IMG/VR virus record: IMGVR_UViG_3300030616_000016
Location: 70,561-134,560 of that record
Source: a virus
Direction: 5' to 3' (one strand)
Length of the DNA: 64,000 nucleotides
Shown here: piece by piece, positions 1 through 35,558 of the stretch
Numbering within the stretch: position 1 is the first letter of the stretch
Layout: each line of letters starts with the position of its first letter
Made by a program: the position numbers and the translations under genes
The notes under the pieces: generated by a model
Told to the model about the DNA's origin: nothing
The model's database searches: none
Seen by the model: only the letters and a program-made list of their open reading frames with translations

Positions 1-576
1 CTTTGTTCTACCTTTAACAAGGAAGAAGATGTCATTGGGCTTATCAAAACCTATAGATCAAACGATAGCTCGCGTGAAACTAATGTTGTCAGAACGGTGT
101 TATCTGAATGGAAGAAGAGCCTAAACATTCCAGATGCTTGTAGTTTCTGTGGAGTTCATTCTATTCTCTCCGAGTCCCAGATGGTAGCGTTGCTAGACAC
201 TATTGATTTATATGTGTGTACTTCTCGGGGAGAAGGAATGTCAGGCCCATTAATTCATGCTATGGCAATGGGAAAGCCTGTTATTTCTTCTGACTTTAGT
301 GCTATGAGTGACTTTATTTATGGCGATACATCTTTAAAGGTTGTTCGATACTGTCTAGAACCTGTTCATTCTATGTCACACATACCTTGGTATGGTCATA
401 GACAAGACTGGGCTAGACTAAACGTTTCTGATATTAGGGAAGGAATGCGTGAAGGATATGAATTATGGAGAGATGACAGAGATAGATTTGAAGAGATTGG
501 ACAGCGTGGAAGGGATTTTGTCAGAAAGATCTACTCTGACGAAGCAGTCCAGAAACGAATTAAGGAACTTATCTGA
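1..576 (+). CDS. Glycosyltransferase family 1/4, C-terminal part (gene starts before the window)
   Basis: Frame 1 is open from base 1. Motif GEGMSGPLIHAMAMGKPVISSD matches the GT1/GT4 EGFGLPLLEAMAxGxPVIAS nucleotide-sugar binding region. This is the only long + strand gene. Confidence 0.6.
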   Translation, partial: LCSTFNKEEDVIGLIKTYRSNDSSRETNVVRTVLSEWKKSLNIPDACSFCGVHSILSESQMVALLDTIDLYVCTSRGEGMSGPLIHAMAMGKPVISSDFSAMSDFIYGDTSLKVVRYCLEPVHSMSHIPWYGHRQDWARLNVSDIREGMREGYELWRDDRDRFEEIGQRGRDFVRKIYSDEAVQKRIKELI

Positions 577-712
577 TTGCAATATATTAAAGTCAAGTCT
601 TCCTAATAAACAAATTGCATATCTCTTATTAAATGGCTATAAGCCTAAAGAGATATGCAATATGTTACGCATTTCTATAAGATCGTTTTATCGTAGACTT
701 AAACAAAACTAA
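449..712 (+). CDS. Small helix-turn-helix protein (LuxR / sigma-70 region-4-like HTH at C-terminus); start uncertain
   Basis: C-terminus LPNKQIAYLLLNGYKPKEICNMLRISIRSFYRRL resembles LuxR/GerE-type HTH. The 5' end overlaps the glycosyltransferase in another frame, so the true start may be downstream. Confidence 0.3.
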   Translation: MKDMNYGEMTEIDLKRLDSVEGILSERSTLTKQSRNELRNLSDCNILKSSLPNKQIAYLLLNGYKPKEICNMLRISIRSFYRRLKQN

Positions 713-877
713 ATACTTATTTTTACTAAACAGGGTTTAGTAAAAATGGTTTTAACCCATGCTATTGGGCTTGTCCATATTCCCATCAGGCAATGTGTAC
801 ACTGCCCTATTCTGTATAAACTATCACCAGAAATTTACTATTTAGTTATTTTTAGTTTAGTCTTATAGAAATACTCT

Positions 878-2026
878 TTAGAACGAGTCAGCGCTTTCCT
901 TTTCTCTAACTGCTCTTTTTATTTGACTACTTAGTCTTGCGTGTGATTGCTTTTCTTTTGCTATGTCTTCTAATATTTCTATATCTTTACTGCTTAACAA
1001 CTTTCTTACTCTGATAATATCAAGGTGAGCAGCATATGATAGAGTTGCAAACAATGTTTCCAACTCCTTTTTATCACATTCATAATTCATGACTTTATGG
1101 ATCCACCCTTTATATTGCTTATATTTTTTGGATCCTATTCCACTAATTCTTCTTGCCATTGTTCTACGACTTATGTCAACTCCAAATACAACACCCAATG
1201 CACTTATTCTATTTATACCGCTTAACATAACTTTTGACTTATGTTTATTAAATCTCATTCCTTCTACTGCTACGGCCTTATTTGCGCACTTGAAAATATC
1301 ATTTATCCATTCTTTCCAGAATCTTTTAGATATGTAAGGCATAGAGCTACTTAGTTGTATGTCGTCAGCATATCTTGAATATCTGATCCTTCCATATGGC
1401 CAACCCATGCTTGACATTGTTATATCAAACTTTCTCATACATAGATTTGATATTACAGGACTTGATGGAGCACCTTGTGGTAATCCATTTGTCATTGAAA
1501 CAAGAGGTATTAATGGTATCTTATATTTTCTGCAGCATGTATCTACAGTATGTAATGATATAAGCATCTTTCTAATATGTTTTGCTTTAATAGATGGAAA
1601 GAAGTTCTTAATATCCATACTAATCATTATTCTAGCTCCATCATGTATCGACTGTAATTTGTTAATTGCAGTTTGGAAGCGTCTAGAACGTCTTAGTATT
1701 CTTCTAAAAGATTCTTGTGTTGTAAACAGCGGTTTTGGACTATATGCTAAGCTATGTCCATTTCTGTCATACTTTTGCAATAGCCATGAGACATATCTTT
1801 GTGCCGTTTTTAAGTCTTCGTCTGGCTCATGTAAATGCCTGATGCCACCTGATCTTTTTCTTATCATGTGGTGTGTATATCTTGAGTCTCTATCGTTTGA
1901 GTTTTGTTGTAAGTCTTCAAACAATTGCTGAATTGTAATACCAGATGGCAAGACTAGACTTAGAAAATTGTCAGGAGTTATATCATGAAGTCTCAGTTTC
2001 TTCTTTATCTGATTCTGTTCCATCAT
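878..2026 (-). CDS. Reverse transcriptase (retron/group-II/Abi-like RT domain, unclassified)
   Basis: RT motifs read in order: IRKRSGGIRHLHEP (RT1), ISMDIKNFFPSI (motif A), GLPQGAPSSPVISNL (motif B'), YADD (motif C catalytic), ALGVVFG (motif E). Length 382 aa. Start overlaps the stop of the upstream RecA-like gene. Confidence 0.8.
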   Translation of the reverse strand: MMEQNQIKKKLRLHDITPDNFLSLVLPSGITIQQLFEDLQQNSNDRDSRYTHHMIRKRSGGIRHLHEPDEDLKTAQRYVSWLLQKYDRNGHSLAYSPKPLFTTQESFRRILRRSRRFQTAINKLQSIHDGARIMISMDIKNFFPSIKAKHIRKMLISLHTVDTCCRKYKIPLIPLVSMTNGLPQGAPSSPVISNLCMRKFDITMSSMGWPYGRIRYSRYADDIQLSSSMPYISKRFWKEWINDIFKCANKAVAVEGMRFNKHKSKVMLSGINRISALGVVFGVDISRRTMARRISGIGSKKYKQYKGWIHKVMNYECDKKELETLFATLSYAAHLDIIRVRKLLSSKDIEILEDIAKEKQSHARLSSQIKRAVREKESADSF

Positions 2027-3107
2027 CTCCGCCTTCCGATTCCGTATTGTCAGATATTAATTTGGTTATATCATTGTTTGCTGCAAATTCATATAGTGCT
2101 ATTATTCCTTGCACGCTTTCTTCGCCTATGTAGTAGTATCCACCACGCTTGGTGATTTTACCATCTACAATCATTTGATCTACTAAAAATCTTTCTTCAC
2201 TAAACCCATGATTAAAGATGAATGGATATTTTACTTCGGCTCCCTCCGGCATAGTACCAGACTGTCTAGTCTTATTGATTTTCATGTAATGCATGAAGCC
2301 AATAATTTTCTCTTTCTTCTTTCCATCTTCTTCTACAATGGCAGCTGGAGCTTCGCTTTTGCTACCTCTACGAGTCATCAGCCTTACGTGTGTAAAATGC
2401 TTAACCGCATTTCCTCCCTTAACGAGAGTTAGGTCACCATATCCACCAATATTGGTGTATATTTGACCAATCATTATGATTGTTGTGTTTGTCTTTGCTG
2501 CAGGACCACAAGCAAGTCTTAGGAACTGGCTCATTTTTCTTTGAAGAACACCGATGGTATCATCGTTTAGGCTACGGTTAGTACCGGTTTTACTTTCGAG
2601 TTCTGCGCGTGGAAGCAGACCGCCAATTGAATCAATAACTACGATGTCTACTAAATTCTCTCTCATAATGTCGAGACATTTATCTAGCATGTTCTCCATC
2701 GTATCTTTCTCAATTATAAAGAGCTCATCTGTATTGACTCCTTGTACTTTTAACCACTCTTTATCCAATGCTTCTTCTGCATCAACCCAGCATGCAATAC
2801 CATGGTTTTTCTGAACTTCTGCTACACATCTTGCACATGCAGTGCCTTTAGCTGTCTGTTCTGGTCCGGCGATTGTAACAATTTTACCTCTAGGAAAACC
2901 TCCGCCTAAATAGTCATCCCAGCCTTTAATGCCGGTTGATATTCTACCGTAATCCTCTAGTCCAAAATGTACAATTTGATTTTCATCATCGATGTCTTTG
3001 TTAATAGAAGTCGCTACTCTTTTTAGACGAGCCATCTTCTCTGCTTTTATATCTTGTGGAGATACAATCTTTTCTTCACTAGTATCTTTGCTTTTTCTCT
3101 TAGCCAT
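1983..3107 (-). CDS. RecA/UvsX/RadA-family recombinase
   Basis: Colinear with RecA core: KIVTIAGPEQTAKGT (P-loop region), ACWVDAEEALD, VDIVVIDSIGGLLPRAELES, MIGQIYTNIGG...GGNAVKHFTHVRL, acidic C-terminal tail. Walker A is atypical (AKG in place of GKT). Confidence 0.85.
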   Translation of the reverse strand: MAKRKSKDTSEEKIVSPQDIKAEKMARLKRVATSINKDIDDENQIVHFGLEDYGRISTGIKGWDDYLGGGFPRGKIVTIAGPEQTAKGTACARCVAEVQKNHGIACWVDAEEALDKEWLKVQGVNTDELFIIEKDTMENMLDKCLDIMRENLVDIVVIDSIGGLLPRAELESKTGTNRSLNDDTIGVLQRKMSQFLRLACGPAAKTNTTIIMIGQIYTNIGGYGDLTLVKGGNAVKHFTHVRLMTRRGSKSEAPAAIVEEDGKKKEKIIGFMHYMKINKTRQSGTMPEGAEVKYPFIFNHGFSEERFLVDQMIVDGKITKRGGYYYIGEESVQGIIALYEFAANNDITKLISDNTESEGGDDGTESDKEETETS

Positions 3108-3110
3108 GTG

Positions 3111-3287
3111 TTATTCTTCCAAACAAGTTTTACAGATTAAATTCCCAACGTCATCATGACTGCTACAATCTAAACAGATTGTTTTGCCACATGAACTACA
3201 TGATCCTAGATATGTGTCGGCCATAGTTTCCATAAACATTTGGTCGCATATTTCACAGTAGTTATCATTATCGTTGTTGTCACTCAT
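3111..3287 (-). CDS. Small zinc-ribbon protein (58 aa), not in supplied ORF track
   Basis: Hand translation MSDNNDNDNYCEICDQMFMETMADTYLGSCSSCGKTICLDCSSHDDVGNLICKTCLEE. Three CxxC pairs. Sits exactly between the RecA-like start and the next gene. Confidence 0.35.
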   Translation of the reverse strand: MSDNNDNDNYCEICDQMFMETMADTYLGSCSSCGKTICLDCSSHDDVGNLICKTCLEE

Positions 3288-3651
3288 TATCTATGCCCTG
3301 CATTAAATATAGTAAATGATCTAGCTTCAAAGTAACAAGAGTGGTTTCATTACTAGGCTTAGCACTTCCTGAAGTACATAAGATAGGAAATCTACCAGTA
3401 TTTCTTGCTTCGCCTATCAATTTCTTCCAATCTGATTTTGATGGCATAAATATTCCATCTTTATTTGTTCTTTGTTTAGCTTCGATCTGTAATAATCGGT
3501 TTTGTATATCGCTATCAGATGCAAATACATTTCCAGAGCCTGCTGTTTCTCTTAAAGATATACCATATTGCTGTGCTCTTTCAACAATGTATCGTTGCAT
3601 TAATGCAGCGTTTTTATTCCTTCCGCCAACTCTTGACATAGGAATCTCCAT
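3280..3651 (-). CDS. Putative PD-(D/E)xK nuclease, Hjc-like Holliday-junction resolvase fold
   Basis: GSGNVFASDSDI...LLQIEAKQ fits the D...E-x-K catalytic pattern of Hjc/archaeal-type resolvases. Adjacent to the recombinase. Confidence 0.4.
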   Translation of the reverse strand: MEIPMSRVGGRNKNAALMQRYIVERAQQYGISLRETAGSGNVFASDSDIQNRLLQIEAKQRTNKDGIFMPSKSDWKKLIGEARNTGRFPILCTSGSAKPSNETTLVTLKLDHLLYLMQGIDNE

Positions 3652-3752
3652 GCTTATTGCCTTTAAGTTTCTTATAGCCTGTCCATACTAATTCCCAACA
3701 GGCTATCTTAACTACCGTAGTGTATAATCTCCAGAGAATATATCCACAATGC

Positions 3753-4139
3753 CTATTCATGGCCCATATCCTCCTCAGGATTATACAAATAGGTTTTTCT
3801 GCCTATCATAAATCCTAATATACACATCTTTGTCATGCATAAATAGATATTCTTATCAAATTCTTCATCAGTATCACTATTTTCTAATATCCATTCTAGA
3901 TGGTCTTCACATACATTATCTATGAAATGCATGAGTGATCCTTCACATTCTTCTAACCAATCTTGTATCTCATTGCTCGTCTCTCTTTCTTCGAGCAATC
4001 TGTGACATTCGGAGATTATTTCTTTGGATACCATGTTGTAATCATCAAGTGTTATTTTCTTCATTGGTTTTTGGTCTCCATGTATATTTTGCATGCCAGG
4101 TTTTCTTTGCTTCAGTTGCATTGTCGTTTGTATTATCAT
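3753..4139 (-). CDS. Hypothetical protein
   Basis: ORF of 128 aa, phage-like codon usage, no recognisable motif. Confidence 0.4.
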   Translation of the reverse strand: MIIQTTMQLKQRKPGMQNIHGDQKPMKKITLDDYNMVSKEIISECHRLLEERETSNEIQDWLEECEGSLMHFIDNVCEDHLEWILENSDTDEEFDKNIYLCMTKMCILGFMIGRKTYLYNPEEDMGHE

Positions 4140-4584
4140 CCTGCTTTGTTTCCTGGCTCTCGTTGGCTTCGTTCTCTGGTTTAGGATCTTCTTTCTTTTC
4201 TTCTTTGATGCGATTGTGTTGATCTAAAATATCTACATTACATGTTTTGATAAATTCATTAAAGTCTGTTTCACTTAAACAGTAATCATTAACATGAATG
4301 TGATAATGTAGATGTTCAGAATCCATCTCAGAAGAAGTTACCAGTTTACCAACAATATACAATGTAGAATCCAAATCTACAGCCTTATCTATCTCCTCTT
4401 CTTCAGGATATTCGAAGTGTAGTTCGTATATATTACTATCATTTGGAGATATACTAGTACCTCTTGCTTTATATACTTTTGTAGATAGAGCTCCTTTCTT
4501 GTCATTGTCTACGGCATCGCTCATTAAATCAATCTTGATCGCCTTCAGAACTGTCATTCCTTGATTGAACCTCTGTATTATCAT
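4045..4584 (-). CDS. Hypothetical acidic protein
   Basis: 179 aa, strongly acidic C-terminus. Overlaps neighbouring ORF in a different frame. Confidence 0.45.
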   Translation of the reverse strand: MIIQRFNQGMTVLKAIKIDLMSDAVDNDKKGALSTKVYKARGTSISPNDSNIYELHFEYPEEEEIDKAVDLDSTLYIVGKLVTSSEMDSEHLHYHIHVNDYCLSETDFNEFIKTCNVDILDQHNRIKEEKKEDPKPENEANESQETKQDDNTNDNATEAKKTWHAKYTWRPKTNEENNT

Positions 4585-6777: not shown

Positions 6778-7069
6778 TTTTATGTATCCATCTGTAGAAG
6801 GTTCTATCGTTAGTCCATATAAACATTAGTTTGTGTGTATATGGTATTCTTTCTTTATAAAGATCACGAAGTATCTGTCTTAGCTCTCCTGATTCCTTAC
6901 CAGTATTATGTATTATAAGAAGTTCTGTTCTTGTATACAAAGTCTTCGCATAGAATATTTGAAGCCAATCTTTGTTTAAAATAGTATGCCATGTAGACTT
7001 AGCATTCTCAATTAGTTGCTCATCATAGTTGAATAGACTAAGAGATAACAACATTTTCTGGTATAACAT
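6689..7069 (-). CDS. Hypothetical protein
   Basis: ORF of 126 aa, overlaps neighbours. Uncertain. Confidence 0.3.
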   Translation of the reverse strand: MLYQKMLLSLSLFNYDEQLIENAKSTWHTILNKDWLQIFYAKTLYTRTELLIIHNTGKESGELRQILRDLYKERIPYTHKLMFIWTNDRTFYRWIHKNERHRHFTKSVSQFGCDERSIQSFIDKYS

Positions 7070-7475
7070 GATCAGGTACCAATGTTACTGTTTCATAATC
7101 ACTCTCTATATACCCATAGATAATAGATTTAGTATTCATATCAATTGGCATATCTTGGTTGACTTCACATTTAACATCATGTATTTTGCCTTCTTGTATG
7201 ACACCACAAGTTGAAAACATATTGATGAAGCAACGCTTGATTGTTGTTGAAATACGATCAACAATAATGTTATTCTTAAATACTTTTGCATCACAACAAA
7301 CAAAAGTATTTTTAGCAACGTTATCAATAGATGACTTTATTATAACGGGCACGATTGAAACATGGTCTTTACCATCTTTTACATACTCTTGATATATATT
7401 AAGAAACGTATGTTCCTTGTATATACATTTAGTTATAATATAGCCACCTATGATAGCGCTGATATTTTCACTCAC
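7038..7475 (-). CDS. Hypothetical protein
   Basis: ORF of 145 aa. Confidence 0.4.
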   Translation of the reverse strand: MSENISAIIGGYIITKCIYKEHTFLNIYQEYVKDGKDHVSIVPVIIKSSIDNVAKNTFVCCDAKVFKNNIIVDRISTTIKRCFINMFSTCGVIQEGKIHDVKCEVNQDMPIDMNTKSIIYGYIESDYETVTLVPDHVIPENVVIS

Positions 7476-21872: not shown

Positions 21873-23167
21873 TACCCCACGCCTAAAGGCGGGGGCTTCC
21901 TAATTCATCGAAAATTGCGTTCCATACTGGCTACGTCTTACATCTTCTCCAAAGGCTTTAGGTTCCCCTTGCCCAGGGGTACAAAATGCAAAATTCAAAA
22001 TATTACTAGATGCAAGGGCATCTCTATCGTGTTTGGCACCACAAGTGCAAGTCCAATATCTGTCACTTAGCTTAAGATTATTATTTATAGCGCCGCACTG
22101 GTTACACATCTTGCTGGATGGTTCAAATCTTCCTATAGTCAAAACATGCTTTCCATACCAACCTGCCTTATACTCAAGAAAGGTACGAAAAGTATACCAT
22201 CCAACATCAGAGATAGCCTTGGCCAAACAATGATTCTTCACCATTCCAGAAACGTTTAAATCCTCAAGACACACTGCTTGGTTCTCGTCAATGAGCCTTT
22301 TGGACAATTTATGCAAAAAATCTTTACGTTGATTAGAAATCTTCTCATGTATCAACGCTACCTTCCTACGAGCCTTGTTTCTATTTGAAGAACCTTTCTT
22401 CTTCTTTGATAATTGTTTTTGCTTTCTTGCCAATCTTCTTTCAAGTTTCTTTAGGTATCTTGGATTATCTATTTTCTCGCCTGTTGATAGTGTTGCAAAA
22501 TGTTTTAATCCAACGTCAACACCTACACTATTATCTCGTTCAGGATTACATTTGATAGGTAATTCTTCTCCATTGTCAACCAAAATAGAAGCAAAGTATT
22601 TCCCAGAAGGAGCCATGAATATAGTTACAGTTTTAATATTGCCTTCAAATTGTCTATGGAATTTGCATTTGATGCCATCACGGAATTTCATTACATATAG
22701 CCTATTATTATCAAAATCCACATTACTTCCTTGTGGAAATTGACAAGATTGCTTTTTGAATTTCTTCTTAAATTGAGGATATCTTGCCTGTTTCTTAAAA
22801 AACCGCCGGAAAGCATTGTCAAGGTTTCTAAAGGCCATTTGCAAAGATTGACTATTAACTTCCTTCAGCCAACCATGCTCAGATTTCATATGTTTCAATT
22901 GCTTTATCAAATCAAAACAGGAAGGAGATTTCCCCGTTTTTTGATAAGACTCTGTTTTCTTTTGGAGTCCCAAATTGTATATGAACCGTACACAACCAAA
23001 ATGCTTCACAAGAAGCTCCTGTTGTTTTTTGTTGGGGTATATTTTGTATTTATATGCTCGTATCATTATATTTATAGTATAGCACAGGTTTCTGTAAATG
23101 TCAAGAGAAAAACGCATTCTTATATCCCCATGGCTAAAGCCAGGGGTCTTACGAATGCACCTTGATA
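21866..23167 (-). mobile_element. IS200/IS605-family insertion sequence, TnpB-only (IS1341-like), with subterminal hairpin ends
   Basis: Left end (near 23167) TATCAAGGTGCATTCGTAAGACCCCTGGCTTTAGCCATGGGG and right end (near 21866) GCCCCCGCCTTTAGGCGTGGGGTAATGTCAC. Both carry GC-rich hairpins with TTTA loops. The same ends recur at 33634-33883 and 62731-62781. Confidence 0.8.
21900..23117 (-). CDS. tnpB: TnpB (OrfB) RNA-guided nuclease of IS200/IS605 family
   Basis: 405 aa. RuvC-like NQAVCLEDLNVSGMVKN (RuvC-II E), zinc finger CNQCG...CTCG, RuvC-III DRDALASSNILNFA. Confidence 0.85.
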   Translation of the reverse strand: MRFSLDIYRNLCYTINIMIRAYKYKIYPNKKQQELLVKHFGCVRFIYNLGLQKKTESYQKTGKSPSCFDLIKQLKHMKSEHGWLKEVNSQSLQMAFRNLDNAFRRFFKKQARYPQFKKKFKKQSCQFPQGSNVDFDNNRLYVMKFRDGIKCKFHRQFEGNIKTVTIFMAPSGKYFASILVDNGEELPIKCNPERDNSVGVDVGLKHFATLSTGEKIDNPRYLKKLERRLARKQKQLSKKKKGSSNRNKARRKVALIHEKISNQRKDFLHKLSKRLIDENQAVCLEDLNVSGMVKNHCLAKAISDVGWYTFRTFLEYKAGWYGKHVLTIGRFEPSSKMCNQCGAINNNLKLSDRYWTCTCGAKHDRDALASSNILNFAFCTPGQGEPKAFGEDVRRSQYGTQFSMN

Positions 23168-33887: not shown

Positions 33888-35558
33888 TTAGTTTATAAGG
33901 CAAAACAGATACTTCTGAATTCTGTCACTGCCTGTTGCATATTCGTCTATCAGGCGATATAAGAGCTTGTCCCAGCCTTTAGATAGCATCAACTGCATTA
34001 CAGTGATGTATATCCTTGTTCCAGACCTCTTACCACTATTTGCATATATTCCATCATCAGATAGCTTACGACTGCATGCATGAGTATTTGTCTGGTGGCT
34101 GAACTTATCTAATACTATCCAGAACACTTTCCCAGACCATGCCTCAACTGTCTGTCCGTTATAAGTATGCTTTTGTGGCTTGCATTCTTTTATAAGAGCA
34201 GATGGTATATTCCCATCTTCTCCTTCTAGAAAGTGAGGAACGGGCGCCGGCCCTGATTCCTCTGCAATATTATTAAGCATAGCTTCTACTATCTGACCTG
34301 GATTCCTACGCTTTAGAGTTGCAAGAGCGTTGGTTACCACTTCTGCTGGTTTGCCATCTATCTTAGGCATTTGCTCGTCTGGTATAATATTTACTATACC
34401 TTTATTACCGTGACGATTTGTAATTTTGTCGCCACTTCTGAGAATATGAAATCTCTCGTATTCGACAATAAGTTTTGTACAAACTGTGTTTGCTACTTTT
34501 GTTCTTATCTCACTGATATTAGACAGTTTAGCTTCACGCTTGACATGACATTTAAGCGTGATTGTTTCTTCTCCATCAGAATAAGAACCAATTATCTGAT
34601 TTGGTCTTACAATGTCTCCGGCTTTGGCTTCCATCTTTAGGCTTTGTTTGCACCATCCTGGTACTACGAATGTCTGTTTCTCAGGAATGACACATGTCAT
34701 TTTTCTAGCTGCTGACTTACTCATAACAATCTGTTCTTTGTATACACCAGGCATGATTGCATGAACTGTAAGTAAGTGCTTGCCATTAAGATTGTTATCA
34801 TAATCTTCTGGAAACACCATAGGTTTATCTGGACTAACTAGCTTGCTGGAAGCCTTGAAATTAGATGCAGTGGTTCTGCGGCGATTATATTCTGGTACAA
34901 TAAGATTCTTATTGAGTATATCGCAATAAACCCGACCTCTTTTGGTGAAGCATCCAATATCGTTTATTTTGCATTCTTCAGCCATGTACATTGTGCGACC
35001 ACAATTCCCCGATGACTGACTTATACTTGTCCAATCAAGAATGCCTTCTGTATTGAATGGCATAAATTCATCCGTTCGTTCTTGAAATAGCTCTAATGAT
35101 ATTTTGGGTCCATAGTGAGTAGCTATTCCCTTTACGACATGAGATAATCTTGAAGTTTTAAGTAAATTATCGAGCTTCATTTGAGCTGTGGTAGAATCTT
35201 CTTGATGTCCGAACATAAAGAAGTCTGACAGTTGTGTAGCATATGCTTGCTTAATGAATTTAAGAAGAAGCTCGTATGGTGTTGATAAATATGTGTGATT
35301 AATATTCATACATCTGTTATTAAAGATTGGCATTGGATTAAGTGTATAGCATAATTGCCGGCTTATTCCATTTACAGAAAACATACCCTTGTTATCAATC
35401 TTAGGTATATTTAGTTTTACGACTGTTTGCATGCTCTGGGATGCCTCTTTAACAAGCATTTTTGTATGAAATAGGTCATCATATTCTTCTATATGACAGT
35501 CAACAGGCAAACAATTACATATAGGAAACAATCTTGCAAGATGAGACTTATTCATCAT
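33888..35558 (-). CDS. Multisubunit RNA polymerase beta-subunit-like protein (C-terminal half homolog)
   Basis: SGDKITNRHGNKGIVNII matches beta region GDK-x-AGRHGNKGV. AIMPGVY...QIVMSKSA resembles the beta AVMPWxGYNFEDAI region. Confidence 0.7.
   Translation of the reverse strand: MMNKSHLARLFPICNCLPVDCHIEEYDDLFHTKMLVKEASQSMQTVVKLNIPKIDNKGMFSVNGISRQLCYTLNPMPIFNNRCMNINHTYLSTPYELLLKFIKQAYATQLSDFFMFGHQEDSTTAQMKLDNLLKTSRLSHVVKGIATHYGPKISLELFQERTDEFMPFNTEGILDWTSISQSSGNCGRTMYMAEECKINDIGCFTKRGRVYCDILNKNLIVPEYNRRRTTASNFKASSKLVSPDKPMVFPEDYDNNLNGKHLLTVHAIMPGVYKEQIVMSKSAARKMTCVIPEKQTFVVPGWCKQSLKMEAKAGDIVRPNQIIGSYSDGEETITLKCHVKREAKLSNISEIRTKVANTVCTKLIVEYERFHILRSGDKITNRHGNKGIVNIIPDEQMPKIDGKPAEVVTNALATLKRRNPGQIVEAMLNNIAEESGPAPVPHFLEGEDGNIPSALIKECKPQKHTYNGQTVEAWSGKVFWIVLDKFSHQTNTHACSRKLSDDGIYANSGKRSGTRIYITVMQLMLSKGWDKLLYRLIDEYATGSDRIQKYLFCLIN

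Follow-up and report, generated by a model that had tools for sequence, protein, structure and literature searches.

We found that the reverse transcriptase (RT) gene in a 64,000-nucleotide stretch of viral DNA (IMG/VR record IMGVR_UViG_3300030616_000016, positions 70,561 to 134,560; here called the window) encodes a retron-type enzyme, directly follows a gene for a RecA/UvsX-type recombinase, and is itself directly followed by a region predicted to form a structured RNA. Taken together the locus looks like a retron-type retroelement that a small clade of uncultured jumbo phages has domesticated within its replication and recombination operon. The molecular core of this explanation is a retron-derived RT at the end of the recombination operon that would be translated together with RecA, would have its RNA partner on its 3' side and would make a small DNA in cis. 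We put this core forward tentatively, as a possibility that falls a little short of probable. The coordinates of the features are collected in Table 1. Related loci carry the labels L001 to L007, and L002 and the window are one locus.

An earlier note on the window had described a free-standing RT of 382 amino acids with motifs RT1 to RT7, including YADD, of the kind found in retrons, abortive-infection (Abi) systems or DRT systems. The open reading frame (ORF) matched Pfam RVT_1 (7.6e-20) and the motifs were located in its translation. Classification with hidden Markov models then sharpened the assignment to the retron lineage. All 25 of the best models in a PADLOC search were retron RTs, with RT_II-A at the top (1.4e-37). 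Among the NCBIfam models the best were retron_St85_RT (1e-40) and Ec67 (2.6e-32), and weaker matches were seen to group II (1e-16), Drt3a (1.6e-15) and Drt2 (3.5e-12). When a profile of the RT family was compared with sequences in the Protein Data Bank (PDB), retron Ec86 (1.2e-37) and Ec67 (1.3e-35) came first and were followed by the type I-A, Ec78 and Ec83 RTs, while the non-retron matches were group II (1.8e-13), Drt2 (1e-11), DRT1 (8e-7), AbiK (1e-5) and G2L4 (2.5e-5). In this search the region-X histidine, the region-Y glycine and a GIGRxKY segment after RT7 all aligned with Ec86. The GIGRxKY thumb region binds the msr RNA in retrons. An AlphaFold2 model of the RT (pLDDT 88.2, pTM 0.83) contained no additional domain, and its 12 top Foldseek matches were all retron RTs (7v9x_A, E 2.8e-15; TM-score at most 0.78 on the target). 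The phage RT therefore shares with bacterial retrons the RT1-7 motifs, the two region-X and region-Y residues and the thumb segment, and whether compared by sequence profile, by solved structure or by predicted fold it matches retrons best, especially type II-A (St85/Sen2) and Ec86/Ec67. Judged by its motifs, this member of the retron RT lineage is intact and catalytically complete.

Phage RTs are most often those of diversity-generating retroelements (DGRs) or of introns, and on that ground one might expect a DGR, a mobile group II intron or a selfish retroelement to have inserted behind RecA. We regard this as extremely improbable and already effectively refuted. The RT4 motif reads LPQGAPSSP where DGR enzymes have IGxxxSQ, a difference the earlier note had recognized. 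The search for a template repeat and variable repeat (TR/VR) that the note had proposed covered 74 kb of the 231-kb contig, and no TR/VR-like repeat of at least 30 nt was found linking positions 1-4200 to the rest of the 64-kb window. The phage RT is like a DGR enzyme in adjoining a non-coding template (here a candidate one), but it is an RT of another clade and has no Avd. With respect to group II introns, the RT scored 61 bits against TIGR04416 (cut-off 300), its group II profile match was at least 20 orders of magnitude weaker than its retron match, the RTs of the family (309-382 aa) have no maturase or endonuclease domain, and the RecA frame upstream is intact. An Rfam search of the window returned nothing at the gathering threshold, neither an intron RNA nor any other family, and at E ≤ 1 the same search of L001, L002, L003 and L005 gave only spurious coding-sequence matches in the UvrD gene. 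These results agree with the view in the note that the protein does not belong to a group II intron. Furthermore the position of the RT is fixed and syntenic in four diverged phages.

Other RT classes were rejected on the same profiles. DRT scores were 57 bits for Drt3a (cut-off 200), 46 for Drt2 (cut-off 390) and 16 for Drt4 (cut-off 450). By these scores and the AbiK and DRT1 matches given above, the RT falls outside the Drt1-5/9, AbiA/K/P2 and UG families. The G2L4 match extended over 55 residues, and G2L4 ranked 23rd in Foldseek with a TM-score of 0.44.

Positions 712-877, downstream of the RT gene, had been read as non-coding and perhaps the site of a structured RNA. We found that 713-877 are indeed non-coding and structured, but the element reaches further, to position 669, and so into a helix-turn-helix (HTH) ORF that was absent from the earlier description. 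Folded as the RT strand (874 to 669), it has a minimum free energy (MFE) of -57.6 kcal/mol and a z score of -5.77, and none of 200 shuffled sequences folded as well. A 14-bp long-range helix, in which a 12-nt perfect inverted repeat (861-872/671-682) is contained, closes the domain. Its arms are GUAUUUCUAUAAGA on the 5' side (a1-like) and UCUUAUAGAAAUGC on the 3' side (a2-like), and within it the predicted fold has an inner helix, three hairpins and a terminal hairpin. This terminal hairpin, whose position is msd-like, is unique in the window, where no homologous sequence was found elsewhere.

At the same place in the related phages we observed a similar domain in which a long-range helix encloses several hairpins, the longest of them adjoining the 3' arm. 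The closing helix begins +3 nt after the RT stop codon in the window, +9 in L001, +0 in L006 and +4 in L003, and the domains of the relatives are more strongly structured than that of the window (z -8.2 to -17.3). The region after the RT of L007 is also structured and ends with the contig. In all four complete loci the RT-sense strand gains 3.7 to 18.8 kcal/mol over the antisense strand on folding and forms more G-U pairs. The predicted fold of L006 is laid out like a textbook retron non-coding RNA (ncRNA): a1 and a2 form a 17-bp helix, the G that follows a1 is unpaired, and short stem-loops are succeeded by an imperfect hairpin of roughly 105 nt directly before a2. In the predicted MFE folds the G after the 5' arm is seen in the window, L001 and L006 and not in L003, and the hairpin before the 3' arm measures 13 bp in the window, 15 bp in L001 and about 105 nt in L006. 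The candidate RNA is like that of retrons in adjoining the RT and in being closed by an inverted repeat, and, as far as the predicted folds go, may also be like it in the G after the 5' arm (three of four loci) and in the long terminal hairpin.

The position of this RNA differs from that in retrons. As a control we folded fixed 200-nt flanks of 70 generic retron loci. Their upstream flanks had a median z of -2.6, with 20% below -5.5, and their downstream flanks a median z of -1.0, with 4% below -5.5. In the phage family the downstream flanks of the same fixed length gave z values of -2.9, -7.1, -3.6, -9.0 and -6.7. The polarity of the RNA is reversed in the phage family relative to generic retrons, with the candidate RNA 3' of the RT. 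In a sliding-window fold scan of 21 kb, which is noisy with only 12 shuffles per window, the region downstream of the window RT ranked second of 280. The most structured 150-nt stretch of that scan was 7302-7451 of the window (L002 4576-4725; z about -7.5, 12 shuffles), which sits within a 145-aa ORF (7038..7475).

Two further observations concern L003, a phage of 48% GC. The domain downstream of its RT had no Rfam or phage-database match, and a called 178-aa arginine-rich ORF there looks spurious; behind the domain lie about 490 nt more of structured non-coding sequence (12990-13476). When the 1.2-kb L003 non-coding region was compared with phage sequences by blastn, nothing matched.

The RT start lies inside the last 44 nt of the RecA gene, as the earlier note had reported for the window, and the purine-rich, Shine-Dalgarno-like sequence GGAAGGCGGAG stands directly ahead of the RT start ATGATG. 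This overlap is confined to the window phage and is not a general feature, since the two genes are spaced by -44 nt in the window, +24 in L001, +130 in L003 and +119 in L004, L005 and L006. Folding of the RecA-RT junction, which had been suggested as a place to look for an msr/msd-like structure, gave an element less structured than shuffled sequence in both the window (z +0.94) and L001 (z +1.05). The 119-130-nt spacer of L003 and L006 folds as a predicted four-way junction (z -4.7 and -4.3). Its 8-bp closing helix has the same sequence in both and is formed by UAAUGUCU and AGACAUUA. The first of these holds the RecA stop codon, and the second is flanked by an AAGGAG Shine-Dalgarno sequence and by the RT AUG. 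The three hairpins inside the spacer differ in sequence, and eight of their pairs are kept by changes on both sides. The predicted fold makes the spacer a candidate structure-mediated translational coupler. Alternatively, it may be a canonically placed retron RNA in that subclade.

We then asked how widely the pair is distributed. We searched 5.8 billion proteins with the RT and afterwards with the family profile, as well as 1.84 billion cluster representatives with full HMMER. The RT family comprised only five clusters, four scoring 485-560 bits and the fifth (P0319) 319 bits, and the next best proteins were ordinary St85-type retron RTs at 164-173 bits. By an independent route, RecA homologues with 58-66% identity led to three more phage contigs. 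In all four loci with context (window/L002, L001, L003 and L004/L005) the RT gene directly follows RecA, which bears out the proposal of the earlier note that the RT is tied to recombination genes. The gene order of the block is UvrD, about 10 unknown genes, Hjc-like nuclease, Zn-ribbon protein, RecA and RT, then the convergent HTH and glycosyltransferase genes; beyond these come a second glycosyltransferase, whose strand varies between phages, RuvC and DNA polymerase III (PolIII) alpha. We counted 18 genes collinear with L001 and 14 with L003, with identities of 19-72%, among which the RT at 37% is not an outlier. Since the identity of the RT falls within the range of its neighbours and the synteny is shared, the RT is an old, vertically inherited part of the module and not a recent insertion.

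Other searches detected generic retrons or nothing. A scan of JGI metagenomes with the family profile recovered generic retron RT loci, with no family member among the matches listed, and none of 80 such loci among the matches listed had a homologue of RecA, the Hjc-like protein, the Zn-ribbon protein, the HTH protein or the glycosyltransferase within 6 kb. Scans of IMG/VR with the RT and with RecA found no relatives. A megablast search of 12 kb against GenBank phages found nothing, and tblastn of the RT against the same phages found only matches of 23-30% to unrelated retron-type RTs.

The recombinase next to the RT, described before as RecA-like, is by sequence a genuine RecA. Its ORF matched Pfam RecA (1.6e-40), a UvsX-like PHROG (1.1e-49) and TIGR02012 (9.7e-47), and the protein is 36-40% identical to bacterial RecAs and 58-66% identical to the RecA of the three related phages. 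The acidic C-terminal tail seen in the window is also present in L001 and is missing from L003 and L005. The top cellular matches (36-40%) come mostly from the Candidate Phyla Radiation (Falkowbacteria, Uhrbacteria and Magasanikbacteria), possibly a weak hint at the host or at the origin of the gene. On the minus strand the order of transcription is Hjc-like, Zn-ribbon, RecA, RT, and the earlier statement that the Zn-ribbon and Hjc-like genes follow the pair was mistaken, as both precede it. The Zn-ribbon protein has eight cysteines that are invariant across four phages. The Hjc-like label is weakly supported, by a PHROG Holliday junction resolvase (phrog_2002, 9e-7) and PDB Hjc 1gef (E=0.27) and by no Pfam match; the protein is 70% identical in L001.

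One rival explanation does without an RNA partner. The RT could be an RNA-independent repair, translesion or end-joining polymerase, like G2L4 in function, that works alongside RecA, the Hjc-like protein and RuvC, with the downstream hairpins serving merely as terminators or stability elements between convergent transcripts. That UvrD, RecA, resolvases and PolIII alpha are encoded in the same replication and repair module speaks for such an enzyme, as do the lack of an effector gene, the lack of conserved sequence in the downstream RNA and the distance of only 7 nt between the last hairpin of the window and the HTH stop codon. The protein itself is nevertheless of retron type (the G2L4 profile value of 2.5e-5 compares with 1e-37 for retron RTs), and it keeps YADD and the retron thumb segment. 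Furthermore a lone terminator leaves unexplained why four phages have 4-5 hairpins inside a 10-17-bp helix at the stop codon, with z values down to -17. On balance we consider a repair polymerase fairly unlikely.

In the explanation we prefer, a retron-derived RT with a 3' RNA partner, translation of RecA and the RT would be coupled, by the overlap in the window phage, the 24-nt spacer in L001 and the structured spacer in L003 and L006. In the latter a ribosome terminating on RecA would open the closing helix and expose the RT start, and RT translation would be tied to RecA in four phages through three junction designs. The RT would then act in cis on the structured RNA at the 3' end of the transcript that encodes it, in the way that retron RTs use msr-msd. 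During the replication phase it would copy the last hairpin or hairpins and so yield a small product, either single-stranded DNA or RNA-DNA. Since there is no retron effector, arming a toxin would not be the task of this product. In the most speculative step, it might serve RecA-dependent recombination or replication, or act as a decoy for host immunity. The purpose is the least certain part of the proposal. The lasting coupling to RecA points rather to a use in recombination or replication of the phage itself, for example as single-stranded DNA for RecA filaments. A more specific version is a natural pairing of retron and recombinase, in which the RT would make single-stranded DNA (ssDNA) from the 3' RNA and the co-translated RecA would load onto it; the loaded DNA might prime recombination-dependent replication or repair, or give constitutively active RecA filaments. 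This version we hold to be unlikely.

Bacteria are known to use retron RTs as anti-phage toxin-antitoxin sensors, and genome editing has adopted them as tools. A defensive role must also be weighed. The locus could be a phage-borne abortive-infection or superinfection-exclusion retron in which the RT, its RNA and either neighbouring proteins (such as the Hjc-like nuclease, the Zn-ribbon protein and a RecA-fold ATPase) or an unlinked effector exclude competing phages, in the manner of tripartite retrons in bacteria. The nearest relatives of the RT are defence retron RTs, an ATPase and a nuclease beside it superficially resemble type I-A retrons, and the same has been suggested for the retron-like RT that jumbo phages of the MarsHill type encode (bioRxiv 10.1101/2020.12.14.422802). 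Yet PADLOC defence and effector models matched none of the 13 neighbouring proteins, the "ATPase" is the RecA described above, and the RT lies in a syntenic core replication module and not in a variable island, where it has been inherited vertically at an ordinary rate. We think exclusion of competitors distinctly unlikely.

The same molecular evidence, an RT with a 3' structured RNA and no toxin, would also suit a counter-defence decoy. Abundant RT-made DNA might titrate or mislead host sensors of phage ssDNA or of recombination intermediates, or, in a variant, mimic the host's msDNA and so keep retron toxins silent. That the RT diverges faster than RecA (37% versus 66% identity) and that the RNAs share no sequence would fit an arms race. 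On the other hand the 37% lies within the range of neighbouring non-defence genes, no known anti-defence family was matched, and a decoy does not explain why coupling to RecA is tight and was repeatedly re-engineered. A decoy function is thus improbable in our view.

Several points weigh against a retron-derived RT with a 3' RNA partner, for which the evidence consists entirely of sequence comparison and predicted folds. The RT misses the curated St85 cut-off (139.8 versus 235 bits) and every other curated family cut-off in NCBIfam, and falls outside all named retron RT families. Retron RTs are defined by the motifs NAxxH (region X, between RT2 and RT3) and VTG (region Y, RT7), of which the His and the Gly are the most conserved residues (Mestre et al., PMC7736814). 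Unlike these, region X of the phage family reads L[KQ]S/E-x-H (L[KQ]xxH) and region Y reads [AV]LG, with only H128 and G278 kept, both invariant. The PADLOC effector and defence models gave only marginal noise with the 13 neighbours (RecA, Zn-ribbon, Hjc-like, HTH and nine proteins further upstream). Unlike a retron, the phage RT has no effector gene, sits in a core recombination operon of a lytic-type jumbo phage and adjoins RecA wherever its context is known, and in the window it starts inside RecA.

The RNA raises points of the same kind. Its placement 3' of the RT is unlike that in retrons, and we found no precedent for it in the literature. The five downstream regions have no 6-9-mers in common, and the comparison involves 4-5 very divergent sequences, too few for covariation statistics. 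The window element is the weakest of the set, its hairpins are AT-rich, and its 3' arm overlaps the last codons of the HTH gene. The terminal hairpin, given its nearness to the HTH stop, could be a bidirectional terminator that also serves the convergent HTH/glycosyltransferase transcript. In L003 and L006 the structured upstream element could be the true template in that subclade. Finally, no RecA was found within the 190-320 nt upstream of the fifth and most divergent RT (L007, a 1.5-kb contig), and adjacency in a conserved phage module is by itself no proof of functional partnership.

The closest parallel among phages is gp206 of the jumbo phages of Staphylococcus named MarsHill, Madawaska and Machias, a retron-like RT with no assigned function (bioRxiv 10.1101/2020.12.14.422802). 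Like the RT described here, gp206 belongs to a jumbo phage with a multisubunit RNA polymerase (here a putative one), has no DGR features and no effector, and adjoins a long non-coding region. It differs in its length of 501 aa, with a roughly 200-aa N-terminal domain, and in that its 1.2-kb non-coding region lies upstream. A linkage to RecA is not described for gp206, and it was not retrieved as a close relative of the window RT, whose best match in a Staphylococcus phage had 29% identity over 63% of the query. We found nothing relevant in the literature on phage RecA-RT pairs beyond this note on MarsHill, and RTs and retrons are both absent from a 2026 review of jumbo-phage biology.

Two other systems resemble the locus in concept. 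The G2L4 enzymes are free-standing group II intron-like RTs that act in double-strand-break repair and need no dedicated ncRNA. They set a precedent, in concept, for cooperation of an RT with recombination proteins. In sequence they are very distant, and in the fold comparison every retron RT ranks ahead of them. Retron recombineering (SCRIBE, recombitrons) is an engineered, artificial approach that uses RecT/Beta-type annealases with designed msd donors. It likewise brings together a retron-type RT, a template RNA and a recombinase, with the difference that the recombinase here is RecA. Nowhere else in the 64-kb window was a sequence homologous to the candidate template found.

On the other side of the RNA region, the glycosyltransferase gene marks the end of the RT-bearing operon. 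The HTH ORF overlaps the 3' end of this gene in another frame and begins about 128 nt inside it. It was missed by gene callers and could be an overlapping gene or a frameshift product. Within its coding sequence lies a 19-nt inverted repeat (609-627/648-666; 95% complementary, 20-nt loop), which is the stretch most conserved in DNA between the window phage and L001 and could be an operator or an RNA hairpin.

The contig of the window phage, assembled from a metagenome, is 231.6 kb long. Its genes lie on one strand, and the convergent HTH and glycosyltransferase genes on the plus strand close the RT operon. Helicases of the UvrD and SNF2 types are encoded on it, as are a protein resembling RNA-polymerase beta and PolIII alpha, and on the basis of these genes and its size we assign it to a jumbo phage. 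An RNA-polymerase beta-subunit-like segment (33888-35558, minus strand; phrog_3295, 2e-14) suggests a phage-encoded multisubunit RNA polymerase, as in phiKZ/AR9-like jumbo phages. A sigma-70 promoter and terminator scan stayed at background level; the sigma-70 model is uninformative for a phage with its own polymerase. Elsewhere in the window we observed an IS605/TnpB-type "transposase" (21900-23117, minus strand; 405 aa, phrog_506, 1.5e-133) and a nicotinamide phosphoribosyltransferase-like gene for salvage of nicotinamide adenine dinucleotide (NAD) (44039-45196, minus strand; phrog_448, 1.9e-19). Auxiliary NAD-salvage genes are often tied to countering NAD-depleting defences. Left of the window, PolIII alpha is split in L002 (15538-20260) into ORFs of 893 and 391 aa, whereas L001 has a single gene of 1143 aa; a 273-aa ORF between the halves has a faint LAGLIDADG match, and the arrangement may reflect insertion of a homing endonuclease, an intein or an intron. 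Searches for tRNA and tmRNA genes found none.

Table 1. Positions of the RT locus, its RNA elements and neighbouring genes in the window and in related loci
Feature	Locus	Coordinates	Strand	Basis or remark
Retron-type RT gene	window	878..2026	-	382 aa, ATG start; six-frame ORF list and Pfam
YADD motif of RT	window	1361-1372	-	ORF translation
LPQGAPSSP (RT4 motif) of RT	window	about 1457-1477	-	ORF translation
Region-X His of RT (H128)	window	1643-1645	-	alignment to retron RTs
Region-Y ALG of RT (VTG in retrons)	window	1193-1201	-	alignment to Ec86
RecA/UvsX-type recombinase gene	window	1983..3107	-	374 aa; acidic C-terminal tail
Overlap of RecA 3' end and RT 5' end	window	1983..2026	-	44 nt; ORF list
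Candidate RT-associated structured RNA	window	669..874	-	multi-hairpin domain, long-range closing helix, 3 nt past RT stop
5' arm of closing helix (a1-like)	window	861..874	-	inverted repeat and fold
3' arm of closing helix (a2-like)	window	669..682	-	antisense in last HTH ORF codons
Terminal perfect 13-bp hairpin	window	719..747	-	last before 3' strand of inner helix
3' RNA domain	L001	10994-11142		predicted; z -9.9
Terminal 15-bp hairpin	L001	11091-11124		equivalent to window 719-747
3' RNA domain	L006	1386-1625		predicted; z -8.2
3' RNA domain	L003	12304-12972		predicted; about 670 nt, 57% GC, z -17.3
RecA-RT four-way-junction spacer	L003	11024-11160		predicted fold
RecA-RT four-way-junction spacer	L006	268-392		predicted fold
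RecA-RT four-way-junction spacer	L004	11036-11160		predicted fold
Zn-ribbon protein gene	window	3111..3287	-	58 aa, directly upstream of RecA; weak Zn-finger matches
Putative Hjc-like nuclease gene	window	3280..3651	-	123 aa
HTH protein gene	window	449..712	+	87 aa; HTH_23 1.7e-4; convergent with RT; conserved in L001 and L003
HTH ORF	L001	11197-11469	-	87-90 aa, full-length conservation in three phages
HTH ORF	L003	13477-13743	-	as for L001
Group-1 glycosyltransferase gene, 3' part	window	97..576	+	convergent neighbour

To our knowledge, retron RTs in phages have been noted only in passing and without a function. What appears to be new here is a stable, vertically inherited RT of the retron lineage in a phage replication and recombination operon, which lacks an effector, whose expression appears to be tied to RecA through three junction designs and whose candidate template RNA lies on the side opposite to that in all described retrons. 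If the natural pairing of RT-made DNA with RecA were true, it would represent a new use of a retron RT in the core replication apparatus of a virus, with an inverted RT-then-ncRNA order not described for retrons. If no such DNA is made, the locus would still be a clean test case of a retron RT without an effector. If the RT does make DNA from the 3' RNA, this would mean that viruses have repurposed retron-type reverse transcription, and the family would supply RT-DNA technologies with compact new RT/ncRNA pairs that nature has already matched to a recombinase.

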